Source of the DNA: an uncultured Candidatus Binatia bacterium
GTDB taxonomy: Bacteria; Desulfobacterota; Binatia; Bin18
Assembly (NCBI GenBank): GCA_965214605.1
Contig: OZ243961.1
Span: 3,904,001-3,968,000 of the forward strand
Length of the DNA stretch: 64,000 nt
Reading direction: 5' to 3'
Shown: piece after piece, positions 34,742-41,127 of the stretch
Numbering within the stretch: the stretch's first letter is position 1
Layout: every line of letters begins with the position of its first letter
Notes under the pieces: model-generated
Database searches by the model: none
What the model saw: only the letters and a program-made list of their open reading frames with translations
What the model was told of the DNA's origin: nothing
Translations under genes and position numbers: made by a program

Positions 34742-35722
34742 TTATCCTGGCTCTTGGGTTGGTTGCGAATCGGCATACACTTCCGCCAACCGCTCCGCCG
34801 TCTGTCCTAATTCCTGCCGCAAACTCTCCGGCTCCAAAACTTCTGCCTCAGCTCCCCACTGCAACACCCACCAGCCGACTTCGCGGGGTTCGCTGACCTC
34901 GACCTCAAACAGCAGACTGCCGTCTTGCTCTTCGGTAAGTTCCTGTGAATGGTGCCAGCAGGCTTCACGGATGAACGGTGCAATACGTTTAGCAAAACGT
35001 ACTCGGACCCGTTGAACCGTGTCCCCTACAAACACACTGAAGGCGTGTCGATGCCGCCGGGCAAAGTTATATGCAGGGCGGCGGGTGAAGTGTACCGGCA
35101 GCTGCTGGACCTCGGAAATGCGGTTGACCCGAAAGACCGAGTCCCTTCCGACTTTGGGACTGTAGGCATCAAGATACAGCGCTCGGCGTTTGAAGTAGAC
35201 CTGGTACGGATTGATCGTATGGGTCTTGGCCGTCTCGTCGCTCGGACGGGTATAGACAATCGTCACCTGTCGGCAAGCCTGGACCGCTCGGGTGAGTTCC
35301 TCCAGAATATCTCGTCGGCAGCCAAAGCCCTCCCGAAGCACCACTTCGTTCAAGCATGTGTTGAGGATTTCCCGCTGCCCGCCCTGAGCGTTGACAATCA
35401 TCTTTTTGATTGCTTCCAGAGCGTCATAGGTCAGAACGAAATCGCCCGCTGCCGAGAGCTGACGGACCGCCATGGTCAAGGCCAACATCTCGGTCATGGT
35501 CAGGTCGTAGACAGGGAGGTAGGGCTCTTTATGGATGACAAAGCGGTTTTGTTGCCGAGAGTAGGAGTAGATAAATCCTATTTTTTTGAGGGCTTCCTTG
35601 TCGCGGTAGTACTGGGCTTTTCCTATGCCGAGTGAATTCCACAGGTTCTCCGGCGATTGGTAAGGGTCGGTTTTGACCTTGGTTGCGTGCAGCAATAAAC
35701 GGCTGGATTTGTTTGTATCCAT
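34742..35722 (-). CDS. wHTH-WYL-WCX transcriptional regulator
   Basis: YYRDKEAL HTH, INPY...LYLDAY...FRVNRI WYL core, WVLQWGAEAEVLEPESLR WCX. Confidence 0.93.
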   Translation of the reverse strand: MDTNKSSRLLLHATKVKTDPYQSPENLWNSLGIGKAQYYRDKEALKKIGFIYSYSRQQNRFVIHKEPYLPVYDLTMTEMLALTMAVRQLSAAGDFVLTYDALEAIKKMIVNAQGGQREILNTCLNEVVLREGFGCRRDILEELTRAVQACRQVTIVYTRPSDETAKTHTINPYQVYFKRRALYLDAYSPKVGRDSVFRVNRISEVQQLPVHFTRRPAYNFARRHRHAFSVFVGDTVQRVRVRFAKRIAPFIREACWHHSQELTEEQDGSLLFEVEVSEPREVGWWVLQWGAEAEVLEPESLRQELGQTAERLAEVYADSQPTQEPG

Positions 35723-35730
35723 CGCCTGAC

Positions 35731-35819
35731 ATGCTAGGCAGAGTGGGAAACTCAGTCAATTAGAAAAAAGGAATCCTGATAAGGAAAATTACGCTCAGTC
35801 TCAACCTGGAGAGACTGAG
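35731..35819 (-). promoter_or_regulatory. WYL promoter (probably leaderless) with upstream palindrome
   Basis: TTGACT-17-TAGCAT ending 8 nt before ATG; CTCAGTCTC-N8-GAGACTGAG at 35794-35819. Confidence 0.75.
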
Positions 35820-35853
35820 TCTCGAAAAAAAGAGACGGGGGCGAGGGCATGGA

Positions 35854-36030
35854 GCGAATTTTTCCGTCGGTCTCAAAGCGGTTGATGCTCTGCGGCTGGC
35901 GTCGACCGTAGCCAGAGCAGTCGCCTCTTTCTGTACTTGTGATTCTCGCTTCTTGAAACGAGCCGGGGAGATGGATACGAAACGTGCAAAAGTCATGTCC
36001 CCTTATAGAGCTCGTTGTGGAGTTGCATAA
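35854..36030 (+). pseudogene. C-terminal remnant of a PIN-domain protein
   Basis: Manual translation GLKAVDALRLAST...FCTCDSRFLKRA...KVMSP, then apparent frameshift to ELVVEL. Confidence 0.55.
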
Positions 36031-36213
36031 CGAAGGTCGAGTTCAAGCTTCCGAGTGAAACTACTTGGAAAGCACTTGCTTTGCCCTCAAAAGAGATGGG
36101 GATTTTGGATACCGTGGCTCGTCCCCTCTCCCTCCAGGAGAGAGACGGAACAAAAGACGTGTGGGGCGGAGCTTGCCAAGCGGACAGACAGGAGAGAACT
36201 GGCAGGGCTACAA

Positions 36214-37047
36214 CTAATCCTTAATCCCCAAGAACCGGTCAATCAACTGCTGCGCTAGGGCGGCTCCGGGTAGGGCGATGCCCACATCATGCCCCAGTTC
36301 TAAGGCTAGGCGTAGGTCTTTATGCATCAGCTGCACCAAGGCGTCCTGGCCGCTGGTATAGGTGTCTTTGAAGCTGCGTTGGGCCAGCCAGTTGTCGGCC
36401 ACGCGGCTTTGCCCGGCACCGGCTTTGACAACTTCTTGGAAGACGTTCGGATCAAGACCGGCGGTTTCGGCCAGCTTTATGCCCTCAGAGGCGGATAACA
36501 TGTTGACGTAGACAATCAAATTATGGGCCAGTTTGGCCACAGCACCCATGCCGAGATCGCCCAAATGAAAAATATTTGCTCCCGAGGTTTCAAACACGGG
36601 GCGACATTTTTCAAACGCGGCCTTATCGCCGCCGACCATATAGCAGAGGGTCTGGGCTTGGGCGCCGCGTTCGCCACCGCTGACCTCGGCATCGATCACG
36701 CTCACCCCGCGGGCCTGGGCCAATTCGGCGACCTTGCGGATCGTGCGGGGATGCACGGTGCTGTGAATCGCAATTACACTACCGGACTGGGCGCCGCTCA
36801 GCACGCCGCCCTCTTCGAGGGTCACGGCTTCGACCTGAGCGTCGTCTACCACAACGAGTTCAATAATCTCGCCGTGGGCGCCGATTTCATGGGCTGAACG
36901 CGCCCTTTTGGCCCCGGCCCTGGCTAGCTCGGACAAGGGTTCTTCGCGCAGATCGTAGACCATCAGGTCGAAACCGGCCTTGGCGACGTTGAGCGCCATG
37001 GGTTTGCCGATATTACCAAGACCAATAAAACCAACACGGGTGGTCAT
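36214..37047 (-). CDS. NAD(P)-dependent 3-hydroxyisobutyrate dehydrogenase family
   Basis: GFIGLGNIG, DAEVSGG, KLAHN, KDL. Confidence 0.9.
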   Translation of the reverse strand: MTTRVGFIGLGNIGKPMALNVAKAGFDLMVYDLREEPLSELARAGAKRARSAHEIGAHGEIIELVVVDDAQVEAVTLEEGGVLSGAQSGSVIAIHSTVHPRTIRKVAELAQARGVSVIDAEVSGGERGAQAQTLCYMVGGDKAAFEKCRPVFETSGANIFHLGDLGMGAVAKLAHNLIVYVNMLSASEGIKLAETAGLDPNVFQEVVKAGAGQSRVADNWLAQRSFKDTYTSGQDALVQLMHKDLRLALELGHDVGIALPGAALAQQLIDRFLGIKD

Positions 37048-37059
37048 ATGGGTGCTCCT

Positions 37060-38085
37060 CTAGGGGATATGAAAGGTGGTGACGTACTCGTTCTCAAATC
37101 CTTTGAGTTCTAAGCGCTGGTCCAAGGGGTGGAACCGTTCGGCCAGGGCCGGTGTTTCGTGTGTGAGTCGTGCAAGCGCGGCCTGGGTGGCAATAATCCC
37201 GCCAGGCGGGATGTGTTTGAGCAGCCGCGAAGCCAGATTAATACTCGGACCAATTAGGGCGACCGAGCGACGCATAGCAACGCCGATCACGCCAATGATA
37301 ATGTCTCCCAGATTAAGGCTGATGCGGGCCTGGAGAGCTGCCTGGCCGTTCTCGGGCCGAGTCTCTGAGAGGGCTTTGCGGATGGCGAGGGCAGCCTGCA
37401 CGGCCTCGGTCACCGATTCAAAATAGAGCAGCGCCCCGTCGCCCTCGTAGTCTTTGACGTCGCCGCAATACTCCAAGGCAATCTCGGTCACCATAGCCAT
37501 AAAACCTTGGACTAAATCCAGAGCGTGTTCAGGTGGCTGATTGACAATCGTGGAGGTAGAATTGGCAATGTCAACAAAAACAACGGTGAGTTCTTTTCTG
37601 ATCGGCGCGTTGCTCTGGGACAGATAACTCTGAGCCAAACCGGGTAGAAAAGTATGGGCATGACTTGGCGTCTGTACGGCAGACAGTGGCCCGGAAAGGG
37701 CGGCGCTGTGAGGGGGAGAGGTCTGATCCTGATTCAGTGAGACGGTCGGATAGCCGGCCTCTTGCCAGGCTGTGAGGCCGCCCGTCAGAGTAACAACCGA
37801 CCGAAATCCTTCGGCTTGTAACCAGAGCGCCACCCGGGCGCTACTCGCCTCCTCGGGTCAGGTTCAATACAGCGCAATCAGCCCATCCCGGGGCAAGGTA
37901 TGCGCCTGCTGTACGATTTCGGCTATGGGCAGCCAACGCGTATTCGGCAGCTGGACGGGCAAGAACAGGCGCGCATCTGTGGTCCGCACGTCAATCGGAA
38001 CAACCGTCTCTCCGCCAGTCATACGGGCGTACAGCTCCTGGGGACTGATCTGCTGAACATCTGGTGTGTTGGTTTGTATTGCCAT
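37060..38085 (-). CDS. rhodanese - class III nucleotide cyclase fusion with two in-frame UGA (putative selenocysteines), 341 aa
   Basis: ALY-TGA-ACC-TGA-PEEASSAR joins ORFs 37864-38085 and 37060-37833 in one frame; FVDIANST, GDG, NLASRL. Confidence 0.75.
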
Positions 38086-38144: not shown

Positions 38145-39128
38145 TTACTGAGCAAACGTGTCAACCAGGGTTTGTAGGTCGCCCGGGGTAAGACGGCTGG
38201 TTGGCGGAGCAGCAACCACGGCCAAGCTCAGCCCCGCCTGAGTGAAAGCGTTGAGTTGGGCGTGACACTCCTCAGCCGTGCCAAAGATGTACAGGTCTTC
38301 CACCATCGTATCAGGGATGGCAGCTTGGGCTTGGGCTCGGTCTCCGGCTTTCCAGTAGGCGTGGACTTGGTCGAGGATCTCGCCATAGCCAAAGCGCCGA
38401 AACCCCTGAATATAGGTGTTGGCCTGACAATAACCGACTAAGATACGCCGCAGCTGTTCGAGTGCCCGCTCACGATCGTCGGTCACCATAGTATGGATGT
38501 AACAGCCGACGTCGATCTCTTCCACACTCCGCCCGGCGCGGTGGGCGCCCTTGGCGATTTCGGCCAGTGAGTGTGAGACTTGCCGGGCCGGCAGCCAGGC
38601 CAGTTGAACGCCGTCTGCAATCTCTCCAGCCAGTTGCAGCATCTTGGGATTCACCGCTGCCAGATAGATGGGTAGCTGGTGTGGAGCCGGGACGCTCAAC
38701 TGAAACCCTTGGGGCCGATAAAATCGTCCCTCATAGCTGACGCGTTCTCCGGCCAGAAGCCGGCGCAGCAGGGCGACGTACTCACGCGTCCGGGCCAGCG
38801 GAAAGTCCCAGGCGAGACCGTGGAATGTATTGATGTTGCGGGTACTGACCCCTAGGCCGAGCCGGGCCCGACCTGGCGCAATCAGGTCGAGGGTGGCGGC
38901 CTGCATCGCGGTCAGGGTCGGTGGGCGCAGATAAAGGGAGACAATCCCCGTGCCGATATGGATGCGCTGACTACGGGCCAATAGCGCACCAACCATGGTA
39001 CAGGTTTCGGTTCCCCAGGCTTCACCGACCCATACGCTGTCAAAATTGGCCGATTCTGCCCGCTGGACAATCTTGGTACAGGTGTCCATCGCCATACCGA
39101 GCGGGGGTAGTCCAAGTCCCATGCGCAT
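38145..39128 (-). CDS. LLM class (F420/flavin-dependent) oxidoreductase
   Basis: WVGEAWG, GRARLGLG, AGEIADG. Confidence 0.88.
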   Translation of the reverse strand: MRMGLGLPPLGMAMDTCTKIVQRAESANFDSVWVGEAWGTETCTMVGALLARSQRIHIGTGIVSLYLRPPTLTAMQAATLDLIAPGRARLGLGVSTRNINTFHGLAWDFPLARTREYVALLRRLLAGERVSYEGRFYRPQGFQLSVPAPHQLPIYLAAVNPKMLQLAGEIADGVQLAWLPARQVSHSLAEIAKGAHRAGRSVEEIDVGCYIHTMVTDDRERALEQLRRILVGYCQANTYIQGFRRFGYGEILDQVHAYWKAGDRAQAQAAIPDTMVEDLYIFGTAEECHAQLNAFTQAGLSLAVVAAPPTSRLTPGDLQTLVDTFAQ

Positions 39129-39150
39129 CGTGTGTTTCCTTTCAGCGAGC

Positions 39151-41127
39151 TTAGCCGTCCAACTCCTCAGCCAGCTCACTCCAGTTTGCGTAGTGTTCTT
39201 CCAGTTCTCCCTTGAGCGTTTCATACTCAGCGGCGACTTCCTTGGCCCGCTGAGGCGTACTGTAGACGCTGCGGTCTGCCATCAGGGCCTCAATCTCTCG
39301 CTGCTGTTCCTCTAGCTCGGTGATCCGCCGTTCGGTTTCTGCCATACGGCGCTCCCGCTTGGAACGTTCGGCGCGGTCGGCTTTCCGGCGTGCATACAGC
39401 GTCTTGCCGCGCTTAGCGTGCTGAATGGCGCCGAGTATCTCCTGTGGCGGTTGCACGCTGCTCTCGCCAGTCTTGGTCCTCTGATCTTGGCCCTCTGACT
39501 TTGGCCATTTCTCCTGCCCGCCTGCCTCACGTTCTTTCCGTACCAGAAACTCTTCAAATGACCCTGGATACAGTATCAGGCGACCGTCCTGCATTTCTAT
39601 CACCTTGGTCACCAAACCGTCCAAAAAGTCCCGGTCATGCGAGACCACCAAGAAAGTGCCGGTGAACTGCTTGAGGGCCTGTTTGAGTACGTCCTTGGTC
39701 CGCATGTCCAGGTGATTGGTGGGCTCATCCAGGATCAGAAAGTTTGAGGCTTGGAGCAGCATTTTGGCTAAGGTCAGGCGGCTTTTTTCGCCACCGCTCA
39801 GCACCGAAACCCGTTTTTCAATCGCGTCCCCAGAAAACAAAAACGCTCCGAGCAAGGTTCGCAGTTGGGGCACAATATCGAACGCCGCCTCGCTCATAAT
39901 CTCTTGATACACCGTCCGCTCGGTGTTGAGCGTATCGGCCTGCTGCTGGGCATAGAAATCGAGCACCACCTGGTGACCCAGCACGCGCTGTCCGTGGCTC
40001 GGCGCTTCAACCCCGGCCAGCAGCCGACTCAGGGTGGACTTTCCGGTCCCGTTCATGCCGAACAGCGCGATCCGGTCGCCGCGCTCAATAATCAGATCCA
40101 GACCGTTGAAGACCTGGACCTGATCGTAGTGTTTAGCGACCTGTTTCAGCTCTAGCACGACCCGGCCGCTGCGGGGCGCGCGGGGGAAGCGAAAACGGAC
40201 TCCGGTAGGAACGGTCTGCGGGGCGCTAAGACGTTCCATTTTCTCCAACTGCTTAATGCGGCTCTGAACCTGAGGGGCTTTGCGGGCGTTGTAGCGGAAG
40301 GTGTTAATAAAACGGGTGATGCGTTCGATCTCGGCCTGCTGCTCCTCATAGGCTTTGTGGTCGGCTTCCAGCCTCTGGGTAAATAGGCGCTCAAAGGCCG
40401 AGTAATTGCCCGTATAGTCGGTCAGGCTATGGCGGTGGATGGCGGCGATACGGGTGACGGTCCGGTCAAGAAACATCCGGTCGTGGGAGACGATGACGAC
40501 GCTGCCCGCATAGGTTCGCAGATAGCCTTCGAGCCACAGCACGGAGTCGAGGTCCAGATGGTTGGTCGGCTCGTCCAAGAGGAGAATGTCTGGGCCTTGC
40601 AGGAGCAGTTTGGCCAGCGCTATACGCATCTGCCAGCCGCCGCTAAAGCGCTCGGTTGACCAGCTAAACTGTTCCTGGCGGAAGCCTAGACCGGAGAGAA
40701 TCTTGGCTACCTCGGCATCGGTCCGAAAGCCGTCCAGTTCTTCAAAGCGGTGCTGGAGCTGGCCGTAGCGGGTCAACTCCTCTGCCGTCCGGGTGTGGCT
40801 CTTGCTCTCAAGCACGGCGCGCAGGCGGGCCAATTCGTGCTGAATGGCGCTCAGTTCGGATAGAGCGGACCGGACTTCCTCAAACAGACTGCGTCCAACA
40901 ATCGGTCCCCCCTCCTGGGGCAGGTAGCCGAGGCTGGTCTCCCGGCCGCGCTGAATCTGTCCGCTGTCCGGTTCGAGCTGACCCATAATCAGCCGAAAGA
41001 GGGTTGTTTTACCAGCACCGTTAGGACCGACAAGGCCAATCCGGTCTCCCCTGCGGAGTTGCCAGTTGAGCTTACGAAAGAGTTCCTGCCCGCCAAATGC
41101 TAAAGAGAGATCGGTAATCTGCAACAT
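39151..41127 (-). CDS. ABC-F family ATP-binding protein
   Basis: Two ABC domains, FSGGWQMR, LDEPTNHLD twice, C-terminal coiled coil. Confidence 0.93.
   Translation of the reverse strand: MLQITDLSLAFGGQELFRKLNWQLRRGDRIGLVGPNGAGKTTLFRLIMGQLEPDSGQIQRGRETSLGYLPQEGGPIVGRSLFEEVRSALSELSAIQHELARLRAVLESKSHTRTAEELTRYGQLQHRFEELDGFRTDAEVAKILSGLGFRQEQFSWSTERFSGGWQMRIALAKLLLQGPDILLLDEPTNHLDLDSVLWLEGYLRTYAGSVVIVSHDRMFLDRTVTRIAAIHRHSLTDYTGNYSAFERLFTQRLEADHKAYEEQQAEIERITRFINTFRYNARKAPQVQSRIKQLEKMERLSAPQTVPTGVRFRFPRAPRSGRVVLELKQVAKHYDQVQVFNGLDLIIERGDRIALFGMNGTGKSTLSRLLAGVEAPSHGQRVLGHQVVLDFYAQQQADTLNTERTVYQEIMSEAAFDIVPQLRTLLGAFLFSGDAIEKRVSVLSGGEKSRLTLAKMLLQASNFLILDEPTNHLDMRTKDVLKQALKQFTGTFLVVSHDRDFLDGLVTKVIEMQDGRLILYPGSFEEFLVRKEREAGGQEKWPKSEGQDQRTKTGESSVQPPQEILGAIQHAKRGKTLYARRKADRAERSKRERRMAETERRITELEEQQREIEALMADRSVYSTPQRAKEVAAEYETLKGELEEHYANWSELAEELDG

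Follow-up and report, generated by a model that had tools for sequence, protein, structure and literature searches.

A Rhodanese–Nucleotide Cyclase Fusion With Two In-Frame UGA Codons and a Conserved SECIS-Like Hairpin in Candidatus Binatia

A stretch of 64,000 nucleotides from an uncultured Candidatus Binatia bacterium (positions 3,904,001 to 3,968,000 of contig OZ243961.1, assembly GCA_965214605.1; referred to here as the window) carries on its minus strand, at 37060-38085, a gene of 341 codons plus TAG that codes for a rhodanese-like domain fused to a class III nucleotide cyclase. Two in-frame UGA codons interrupt its rhodanese part, and we consider it very probable that the gene is intact and encodes a selenoprotein of 341 residues with two selenocysteines (Sec, U). 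The evidence consists of Cys codons aligned with both UGA sites in homologues, the selenocysteine machinery encoded in the same genome, and a conserved, covarying hairpin that resembles bacterial selenocysteine insertion sequence (SECIS) elements. An initial annotation, made from the letters of the window, had proposed a di-selenocysteine rhodanese-cyclase gene; this interpretation is supported by the comparisons presented here, and its functional part is taken up as a conditional proposal. As far as the literature searched shows, what is new is that the rhodanese is joined to a cyclase and that its site is a double one, U-x-U; a C-x-U rhodanese selenoprotein with its SECIS is known.

Reading Frame and Conservation of the UGA Codons

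Translation of the minus strand from the ATG at 38085-38083 to the TAG at 37062-37060, with TGA read as U, gives 341 residues, and the only internal in-frame stops are the TGA codons 74 (37864-37866) and 76 (37858-37860), six bases apart. This agrees with the view of the initial annotation that two listed open reading frame (ORF) fragments are one frame broken only at these two places. The motif context is Y-U-T-U-PEEASSAR, the frame reading ...LIALY-U-T-U-PEEASSARVALW at this point and, on a longer stretch, ...LIALY-U-T-U-PEEASSARVALWLQAEGF.... Since the Pfam Rhodanese match spans residues 14-110, both TGAs fall midway through this domain; codon 76 occupies the position of the catalytic Cys of rhodaneses, and codon 74, presumably Sec here, corresponds to Cys or Sec in orthologues. 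Under translation table 11, the frame is cut into an ORF at 37864-38085 (73 amino acids) and another at 37060-37833 (257 amino acids, GTG start). Direct reading of the sequence reveals GGGAG at 38099-38095, upstream of the ATG at 38085, which may serve as ribosome-binding site. Both TGAs are unchanged in contigs assembled from sequencing runs of two other studies, with the qualification that, of the four runs, two agree with the window letter for letter and may not be independent of it, being perhaps its source. One contig of another study stems from a near relative, which differs at 7 places elsewhere in 420 nt and keeps both TGAs.

In a six-frame search of 61 genomes, comprising the genome of the window and 60 relatives, a full-length orthologue was found in 20, all of them from one taxonomic family, and in a twenty-first genome the gene is divided over two contig ends. 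Every full-length orthologue carries in-frame TGA, 14 of them two (Y-U-T-U, in eight genomes of the same genus and six others) and six of them one (Y-C-T-U). In a full-length alignment of 19 of the 20 orthologues together with the homologue L030, the orthologues are 54-86% identical to the fusion protein of the window. Within the genus of the window, where protein identity is 65-86%, the first UGA is kept in all eight genomes. A scan of named metagenome-assembled genome records yielded 25 motif-bearing loci, 13 of which match known loci around the motif; the 12 new ones comprise three with U-x-U and nine with C-x-U. Two of these 12, L069 and L070, whose C-terminal parts are not in one frame, were counted for the motif and excluded from the tree.

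Taken over all 32 fusion loci, site 76 is TGA without exception, whereas site 74 is TGA in 17 and TGC or TGT in 15. On a maximum-likelihood tree of 31 proteins, calculated with the motif columns masked, six changes between U and C at site 74 are most parsimonious, and at least three are forced by well-supported branches. Judged from these alignments, the catalytic position appears to be always Sec in fusion loci and the auxiliary position either Cys or Sec, the auxiliary Cys having apparently become Sec in this genus and in several other lineages. The frequent exchange at 74 next to a fixed Sec at 76 might be regarded as a natural experiment on the need for Sec.

More distant homologues carry Cys at both sites. 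The two-domain homologue L030, 36% identical, reads YCLC, and C-x-C is present in 12 of 13 distant full-length homologues from a library of 1.8 billion proteins, the thirteenth having neither the C-x-C motif nor one of the metal-binding Asp residues; no full-length relative above 43% identity was found in that library. Cys/UGA-aligned homologues, for which the initial annotation had called, therefore exist at both positions. The UGA sites alternate with Cys codons only, and amino-acid conservation continues on both flanks, a pattern that shows the gene to be one frame under purifying selection on either side of both UGAs.

Selenocysteine Machinery of the Genome

The assembly to which the window belongs (4.37 Mb in 9 contigs) encodes the complete set of genes that had been named as a check on the proposal. 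selA is present (516 bits) and is directly adjoined by a tRNA-SeC (selC) with the anticodon tca, and selB lies beside selD. The selD gene (388 bits) carries an in-frame TGA of its own, in the context KAAG-U-AGK, followed 18 nt downstream by a hairpin GGUCC-GGC-GGACC with the loop GGC. The selD/selB pair and the tRNA-SeC/selA pair are situated outside the window, at G000:C1:1899798-1900954 and C1:3624480-3625727. selA was also detected in all five of the other carrier genomes checked.

SECIS-Like Hairpin Downstream of the UGA Codons

A SECIS-like element is located at 37821-37848 of the minus strand, with an upper hairpin of 6 bp at 37842-37826, the loop CGGGU at 37836-37832, and a short interrupted lower stem. 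The hairpin reads AG[U]AGCGCC-CGGGU-GGCGCU-CU, with the upper stem AGCGCC/GGCGCU and the loop at nucleotides +22 to +26 after the second UGA. The distance from UGA to apical loop amounts to 21 nt for codon 76 and 27 nt for codon 74, and because the loop begins at these distances the same hairpin would have to serve both insertions. The 28-mer 37848-37821 folds alone as ((.((.((((((.....)))))))).)) at -13.8 kcal/mol, and the 17-mer of the upper hairpin has a minimum free energy (MFE) of -9.2 kcal/mol. When 63-86 nt downstream were folded as a single sequence, the minimum-energy structure was an alternative ACCCG/CGGGU fold; it was dropped because its bases vary between genera, the hairpin of the initial annotation being the conserved one.

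In the bacterial SECIS model of Zhang and Gladyshev, as quoted in the legend of Fig. 2 of PMC13188914, the element has a loop of 3-9 nt and a stem of 4-16 bp. According to the same legend, the loop has a G as its first or second base, as a rule with G or U next to it, the spacing from UGA to loop is 16-37 nt, and the MFE is at most -7.5 kcal/mol. The element described here conforms on all four counts, with a 5-nt loop on a 6-bp stem whose core is kept in 97-98% of cells, a G at position 2 of the loop C-G-G-G-U, spacings within the range for both UGAs, and the energies given above for the 17-mer and the 28-mer.

Conservation of the hairpin was followed in alignments of increasing depth. Each of the 20 orthologues is able to form the 6-bp stem, which RNAalifold selects together with the short interrupted lower stem. 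In an alignment of 32 sequences (A3), 98.2% of the cells are paired, eight cells show changes on both sides, and no shuffle out of 500 equalled the alignment in pairing or in covariation score. A larger alignment of 56 sequences (A4) consists of the 20 and 12 fusion loci, one stand-alone relative from the same bacterial family, and 23 stand-alone loci of the NF041203 type, a rhodanese-related family treated below. The latter were drawn from 30 loci in genomes sampled evenly across the phylum of the window, of which L097, L098, L102, L103, and L118 fall outside the motif pattern; L104 (C-x-C) and L107 (one codon shorter) were also excluded. These stand-alone loci possess the same hairpin over the same codons. 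Throughout the 56 sequences, a 5-bp core is paired in 97.4% of the cells, pair 30-42 being C-G in 30, U-A in 19, U-G in two, and unpaired in two sequences, and pair 33-39 being C-G in 51 and A-U in two. None of 500 shuffles reached the observed values, and slid controls were only 19-66% paired, figures to be read with the caveat that the sequences are related and that the structure was derived from them.

The exchange at pair 30-42 is hard to ascribe to the protein, because it falls mostly on silent third positions (Ser AGC/AGT together with Ala GCG/GCA). At Ala83 (GCC), whose third position is four-fold degenerate, that base does not vary among the 32 sequences, whereas at Ala91 all four bases occur there. 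All 56 sequences have G as second loop base (column 35), with G or U in column 36. The hairpin of the initial annotation, with its loop at 22-26 nt after the second UGA, thus proved conserved and covarying, whereas the bulged U to which that annotation had drawn attention is not a conserved feature: it is found in this genome and two others of A3, and 28 of the 31 other A3 sequences have C in that column. A C in this column, as most orthologues have it, is able to pair with the G that follows the stem. The bulged U resembles that of E. coli fdhF.

Domains of the Fusion Protein

Both domains that the initial annotation had assigned are recognized by Pfam above the gathering cut-offs. The rhodanese-like domain, residues 14-110 (37756-38046, minus strand), matches PF00581 with an E-value of 9.3e-8 and 32.9 bits against a cut-off of 22.2. 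A variable linker of residues ~115-160 (37606-37743, minus strand) follows, about 45 residues long and for the most part disordered in the model described below, which is gapped in the alignment, is conserved again from H142 onward, and ends in H-x-H-T-F-L-x-G-L. The class III nucleotide cyclase domain comprises residues 164-341 (37063-37596, minus strand) and matches Guanylate_cyc, PF00211, over residues 164-314 (E 1.5e-9, 38.2 bits against a cut-off of 21.9). An AlphaFold model calculated from the orthologue alignment has a mean predicted local distance difference test (pLDDT) score of 81, with two confident domains and scores below 50 for linker residues 120-145.

In the model, a strand of residues 69-73 leads into U74-T75-U76, which is followed by a helix of residues 77-91. 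Pairwise alignment with the rhodanese-like structure 6mxv of the PDB places its active-site Cys at residue 76 and a Phe at residue 74. The fixed Sec at 76 and the Cys or Sec at 74 fit this alignment as a catalytic and an auxiliary position, respectively.

For the cyclase domain, the top Foldseek matches are CyaC (1wc1, E 4e-15) and CyaB (3r5g, E 6e-15), with template modelling (TM) scores of ~0.8 on the target, and the sequence matches solved class III cyclases at E 5.8e-10. No variation is seen at D172, D216, N283, R287, or K328 when 19 of the 20 orthologues are aligned with L030 (20 sequences, down to 36% identity). From their positions in alignments with CyaB and OaPAC, we take D172 and D216 to be the metal-binding Asp pair, N283 and R287 the transition-state pair, and K328 the phosphate-binding Lys. 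In the same alignments, Asp212 stands in place of the purine-selecting Lys, immediately preceded by Lys211, and Pro280 in place of the partner Asp. Asp212 is invariant in the 20 aligned sequences and in the alignment of Cys-type homologues.

Among the Cys-type full-length homologues (alignment A5), several have S, P, I, V, or Q instead of the catalytic Asn283, and parts of this wider family may be catalytically dead. The genomes also encode cyclase-domain paralogues that are 51-59% identical to residues ~125-341 and have neither an in-frame stop nor a matched rhodanese part (for example, G002:C1:4931520-4932146, G008:C751:29211-29819, G017:C136, and G030:C229). The same cyclase output domain thus seems to exist with other N-terminal modules or with none.

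Comparison With Known Selenoproteins and Cyclases

The closest known relative is the family NF041203 (rhodanese_LYCAU, rhodanese-related (seleno)protein), which is the best NCBIfam match of the N-terminal domain. Both share the motif Y-C/U-x-U-P-x-E-x-S/T-S-A with Sec at the second position, and they have in common the hairpin, its codons, and its covariation, as aligned for the 23 stand-alone loci. The arrangement by which the family is recognized, a hydrophobic strand with Tyr at its end and then C-x-U, is found here as Y-U-T-U and in 15 orthologues as Y-C-T-U. In contrast, members of NF041203 are stand-alone proteins with frames of ~125-215 codons, whereas the fusion adds the linker and the class III cyclase, and the first Cys of the family motif is replaced by Sec in this fusion, reviews listing one Sec for the family. 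Y-U-T-U also occurs in two of 25 stand-alone NF041203-type loci, L100 (G112) and L113 (G080), the others being Y-C-x-U, so that the double-Sec variant also exists outside the cyclase fusion.

A table in PMC13188914 lists five rhodanese-type selenoproteins, among them "form 3, NF041203, CxU, 1 Sec," and also TsoB, a rhodanese/DsbD fusion-like protein (NF045694) with UxxxxU and two Sec. Closely spaced double-Sec motifs in other bacterial families, i.e., UxxU, UxxxxU, and CU x2, are given in the same source. PMC9312934 lists a "COG0607 form 2, CxU" and, as a family, Prx-like UxxC/UxxU selenoproteins, and COG2897, a rhodanese-related sulfurtransferase family, is listed in the Sargasso Sea paper. 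TsoB resembles the present protein in combining a rhodanese-type domain with another module and in having two closely spaced Sec, and it differs in the spacing, UxxxxU versus UxU, and in the partner domain. NF045694 gave weak matches to related rhodanese domains, and none at E<=0.01 to this protein. Some long frames of 553-575 codons (L102, L103, and two further places) combine a strong NF041203-type domain with one or two in-frame TGAs and may be TsoB-like rhodanese fusions.

On the cyclase side, CyaC of Spirulina platensis and CyaB of Pseudomonas aeruginosa share with the fusion protein the fold, the metal Asp pair, Asn-x-x-x-Arg, and the C-terminal Lys, and the differences lie in Asp212/Pro280 at the base-selecting positions and in the Sec-containing rhodanese as sensor domain. 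A search of full-text literature, which covered articles and not the supplementary tables of the primary surveys, returned no report of a Sec-containing rhodanese-cyclase protein; the word "cyclase" does not occur in PMC13188914 or PMC9312934, nor does "UxU" in PMC13188914.

Weighing the Interpretations

Several observations weigh against a di-Sec protein with a working cyclase. By energy, the hairpin is unremarkable (z -1.5 for the 28-mer), and for an 86-nt stretch z is +0.25 and the minimum-energy fold is a different structure; the fold of the single sequence of the window suggests the hairpin and does not exceed chance. What is beyond chance is conservation, i.e., the recurrence of both TGAs and the hairpin in orthologues at 54-86% identity, together with the compensatory changes in the hairpin. 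When the shuffle control was confined to the 20 closest orthologues, 48 of 500 shuffles did as well as the real alignment in pairing, changes on both sides, and covariation score; at this depth the control is undistinctive because these sequences vary so little. A search of Rfam at a permissive threshold returned no SECIS family, only two chance-level matches to the opposite strand. The stand-alone C-x-C locus L104 keeps a similar stem with the loop AAUGU, and part of the stem could therefore be inherited or imposed by the coding sequence. The element also departs from the bacterial SECIS model in that a single one would have to serve two UGAs 6 nt apart, as we infer from the spacing, and in that the N1-N2 pair closing the loop, called common in the model as quoted in PMC13188914, is absent from this loop. 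No RNA run is listed among the runs that hold the sequence, the support coming from sequence comparison. Against the NF041203 model, the protein scores 64.4 bits, with a cut-off of 115; an orthologue reaches 80.8 and the stand-alone relative in the same bacterial family 98.9. Judged by this curated score, the fusion protein appears to be a relative of the family that shares its SECIS and not a member of it. The canonical base-selecting pair of class III cyclases, Lys/Asp for ATP or Glu/Cys-type for GTP, was not found, and because D212/P280 stand in its place neither the product of the cyclase nor robust activity can be read from the sequence. Finally, the acidic loop U-P-E-E/D-A-S is unlike the loops of rhodaneses that bind thiosulfate or other anions; it may be compatible with binding of a metal or metalloid.

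If the gene is nevertheless decoded as proposed, SelB together with Sec-tRNA(Sec) would read UGA codons 74 and 76 as Sec, one intragenic mRNA hairpin directing both insertions two codons apart. Sec76 would then stand at the canonical catalytic-Cys position with Sec74 two residues before it, and the U-x-U of this protein, or C-x-U in orthologues, might alternate between the reduced form and a diselenide or selenenyl-sulfide. Alternatively, the pair of residues 74 and 76 might carry a per(seleno)sulfide or another sulfur or selenium adduct. Class III cyclases are dimers, and the state of the pair could set the activity of the C-terminal cyclase dimer. That a redox, sulfur, or selenium signal is coupled in this way to a cyclic nucleotide is a tentative proposal, somewhat short of even chances in our estimate. 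Further-reaching, and in our opinion rather doubtful, is the combined view that this would be the first nucleotide cyclase or second-messenger enzyme with a selenium-based switch as input, with one SECIS for two Sec, a third Sec in redoxin-fused relatives (see below), and, given Asp/Pro, a product that is maybe not cAMP. For signalling, if the coupling is true, it would constitute a direct link between selenium or redox chemistry and cyclic-nucleotide signalling that is listed in neither PMC13188914 nor PMC9312934. For Sec decoding, the gene could provide a compact natural test of the tolerance of UGA-SECIS spacing and of SelB reloading within two codons.

A different view of the function, which we consider unlikely, is that the rhodanese domain actually transfers sulfur or selenium, or binds a soft metal or metalloid, and that the cyclase is degenerate or a scaffold, the protein being an enzyme or carrier without signalling. 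It would accord with the location of Sec76 at the rhodanese catalytic position, with the small, stand-alone proteins of the closest family, which have no output domain, with the non-canonical base-selecting pair, with the loss of the catalytic Asn in several Cys-type homologues, and with the oxidoreductases encoded by conserved neighbour genes. However, the invariance of both metal Asp residues, N283, R287, and K328 in 20 of 20 sequences of the Sec-type alignment, down to 36% identity, argues for an active site that works; 32 loci retain the fusion architecture, and the fold matches active cyclases at E-values of ~1e-15.

As to decoding, it might be argued that only UGA 76 is a true Sec codon and that UGA 74 is poorly decoded or read through as Cys or Trp by a near-cognate tRNA, in which case the main full-length product would not be di-Sec because most ribosomes would stop at UGA 74. 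The known family does have C-x-U with one Sec, and site 74 is Cys in nearly half of the fusion loci and switches often. Moreover, there is no second hairpin specific to UGA 74, a small stem in columns 8-10/17-19 being weakly kept, and the hairpin shows no systematic difference between U-x-U and C-x-U orthologues. Against this stand the retention of UGA 74 in all eight genomes of the genus and in at least three further lineages, its alignment elsewhere with Cys only, which is the usual signature of Sec, and its spacing of 27 nt, which falls within the range of the model. U-x-U also recurs in two of the 25 stand-alone loci, and UxxU, UxxxxU, and CU x2 are listed for other families in the table of PMC13188914. 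On balance, a single-Sec product seems improbable, and the di-Sec protein remains the preferred reading.

Still less probable, to a degree that leaves it very little room, is a broken or split gene, with the TGAs as nonsense mutations in a pseudogene or with separate polypeptides of 73 and 257 amino acids. It has in its favor that table 11 gives two ORFs and that public records of relatives, among the matches listed, hold the C-terminal piece only. However, the same TGAs are present across 32 loci, with strong conservation on both sides and between stop and restart, a break would cut the rhodanese fold midway, the TGA sites align with Cys, and the Sec machinery is present. Furthermore, the GTG of the second ORF is GCG in 18 of 19 other orthologues (alignment A1) and is kept in none of the 19, so that there is no restart codon conserved after the TGAs. 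Both the pseudogene and the split gene were rejected on these comparative data.

The chance that TGA has been reassigned, for example to Trp or Gly, and that both sites are ordinary sense codons is practically negligible: nothing more than the open frame itself speaks for it, and it is refuted by the usage of terminal stops in 2149 open frames of at least 300 codons, in which TGA is the ordinary and commonest stop (TGA 870, TAG 684, TAA 595), while the sole UCA-anticodon tRNA found is tRNA-SeC, the sites align with Cys and not with Trp or Gly, and TGA also serves as terminal stop of the fusion gene itself in four orthologues.

Public Annotation of Relatives

The initial annotation had expected gene callers to split the gene, and this is what table 11 does here and what the databases contain for relatives. 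The 120 matches listed cover 56-76% of the query, and all seven relative sequences that were fetched lack the part up to the TGAs, five of them beginning still inside the rhodanese domain. They are named mostly as class 3 adenylate cyclase or "adenylate/guanylate cyclase domain-containing protein." Because public calls are C-terminal fragments and the NF041203 model misses the fusion, the whole clade is mis-annotated and its sensor domain is invisible. The clade spans Binatia-type and other uncultured bacteria. The records of relatives are metagenome-assembled genomes, titled mostly Candidatus Binatia or Binatota, with other, assorted labels that are probably unreliable. In particular, the labels of L040, L041, L046, L048, L049, and L059 ("uncultured Enterobacteriaceae bacterium") look unreliable because their nearest relatives are titled Candidatus Binatia.

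Five database proteins (P0008, P0011, P0013, P0014, and P0033), 66-75% identical over the cyclase, extend beyond it with a redoxin domain of the AhpC/TSA type. Each of them breaks off at ...FYRGEW, the point at which a C/UxxC motif stands in Prx-like proteins, an ending that suggests a three-domain form that may carry a third Sec. When 61 related genomes were searched with one of these redoxin-fused proteins, no match reached the redoxin part.

Gene Neighbourhood

Both neighbours of the fusion gene lie on its strand. Upstream, at 38145-39224 (minus strand), is a gene for a luciferase-like (LLM) oxidoreductase (PF00296, E 1.9e-78), whose true start is probably further in because orthologue alignments mostly begin near residue 29-30. 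It adjoins the fusion in loci of the genus of the window and of several other genera. Downstream, at 36214-37047 (minus strand) and beginning 12 nt after the stop of the fusion, follows a gene for an NAD(P)-dependent beta-hydroxyacid dehydrogenase-like protein (PF03446 and PF14833), which adjoins the fusion in many loci with 77-91% identity. A neighbourhood conserved within one bacterial family may reflect simple inheritance. Further upstream of the fusion, an ABC-F ATPase is encoded at 39151-41127, and its ORF overlaps that of the LLM oxidoreductase by 74 bases (39151-39224). Two genes downstream, at 34742-35722 (minus strand), a protein with WYL and WCX domains is encoded, a type of putative transcriptional regulator, and the ~500 bases between this gene and the dehydrogenase gene (35723-36213) are without a long ORF.

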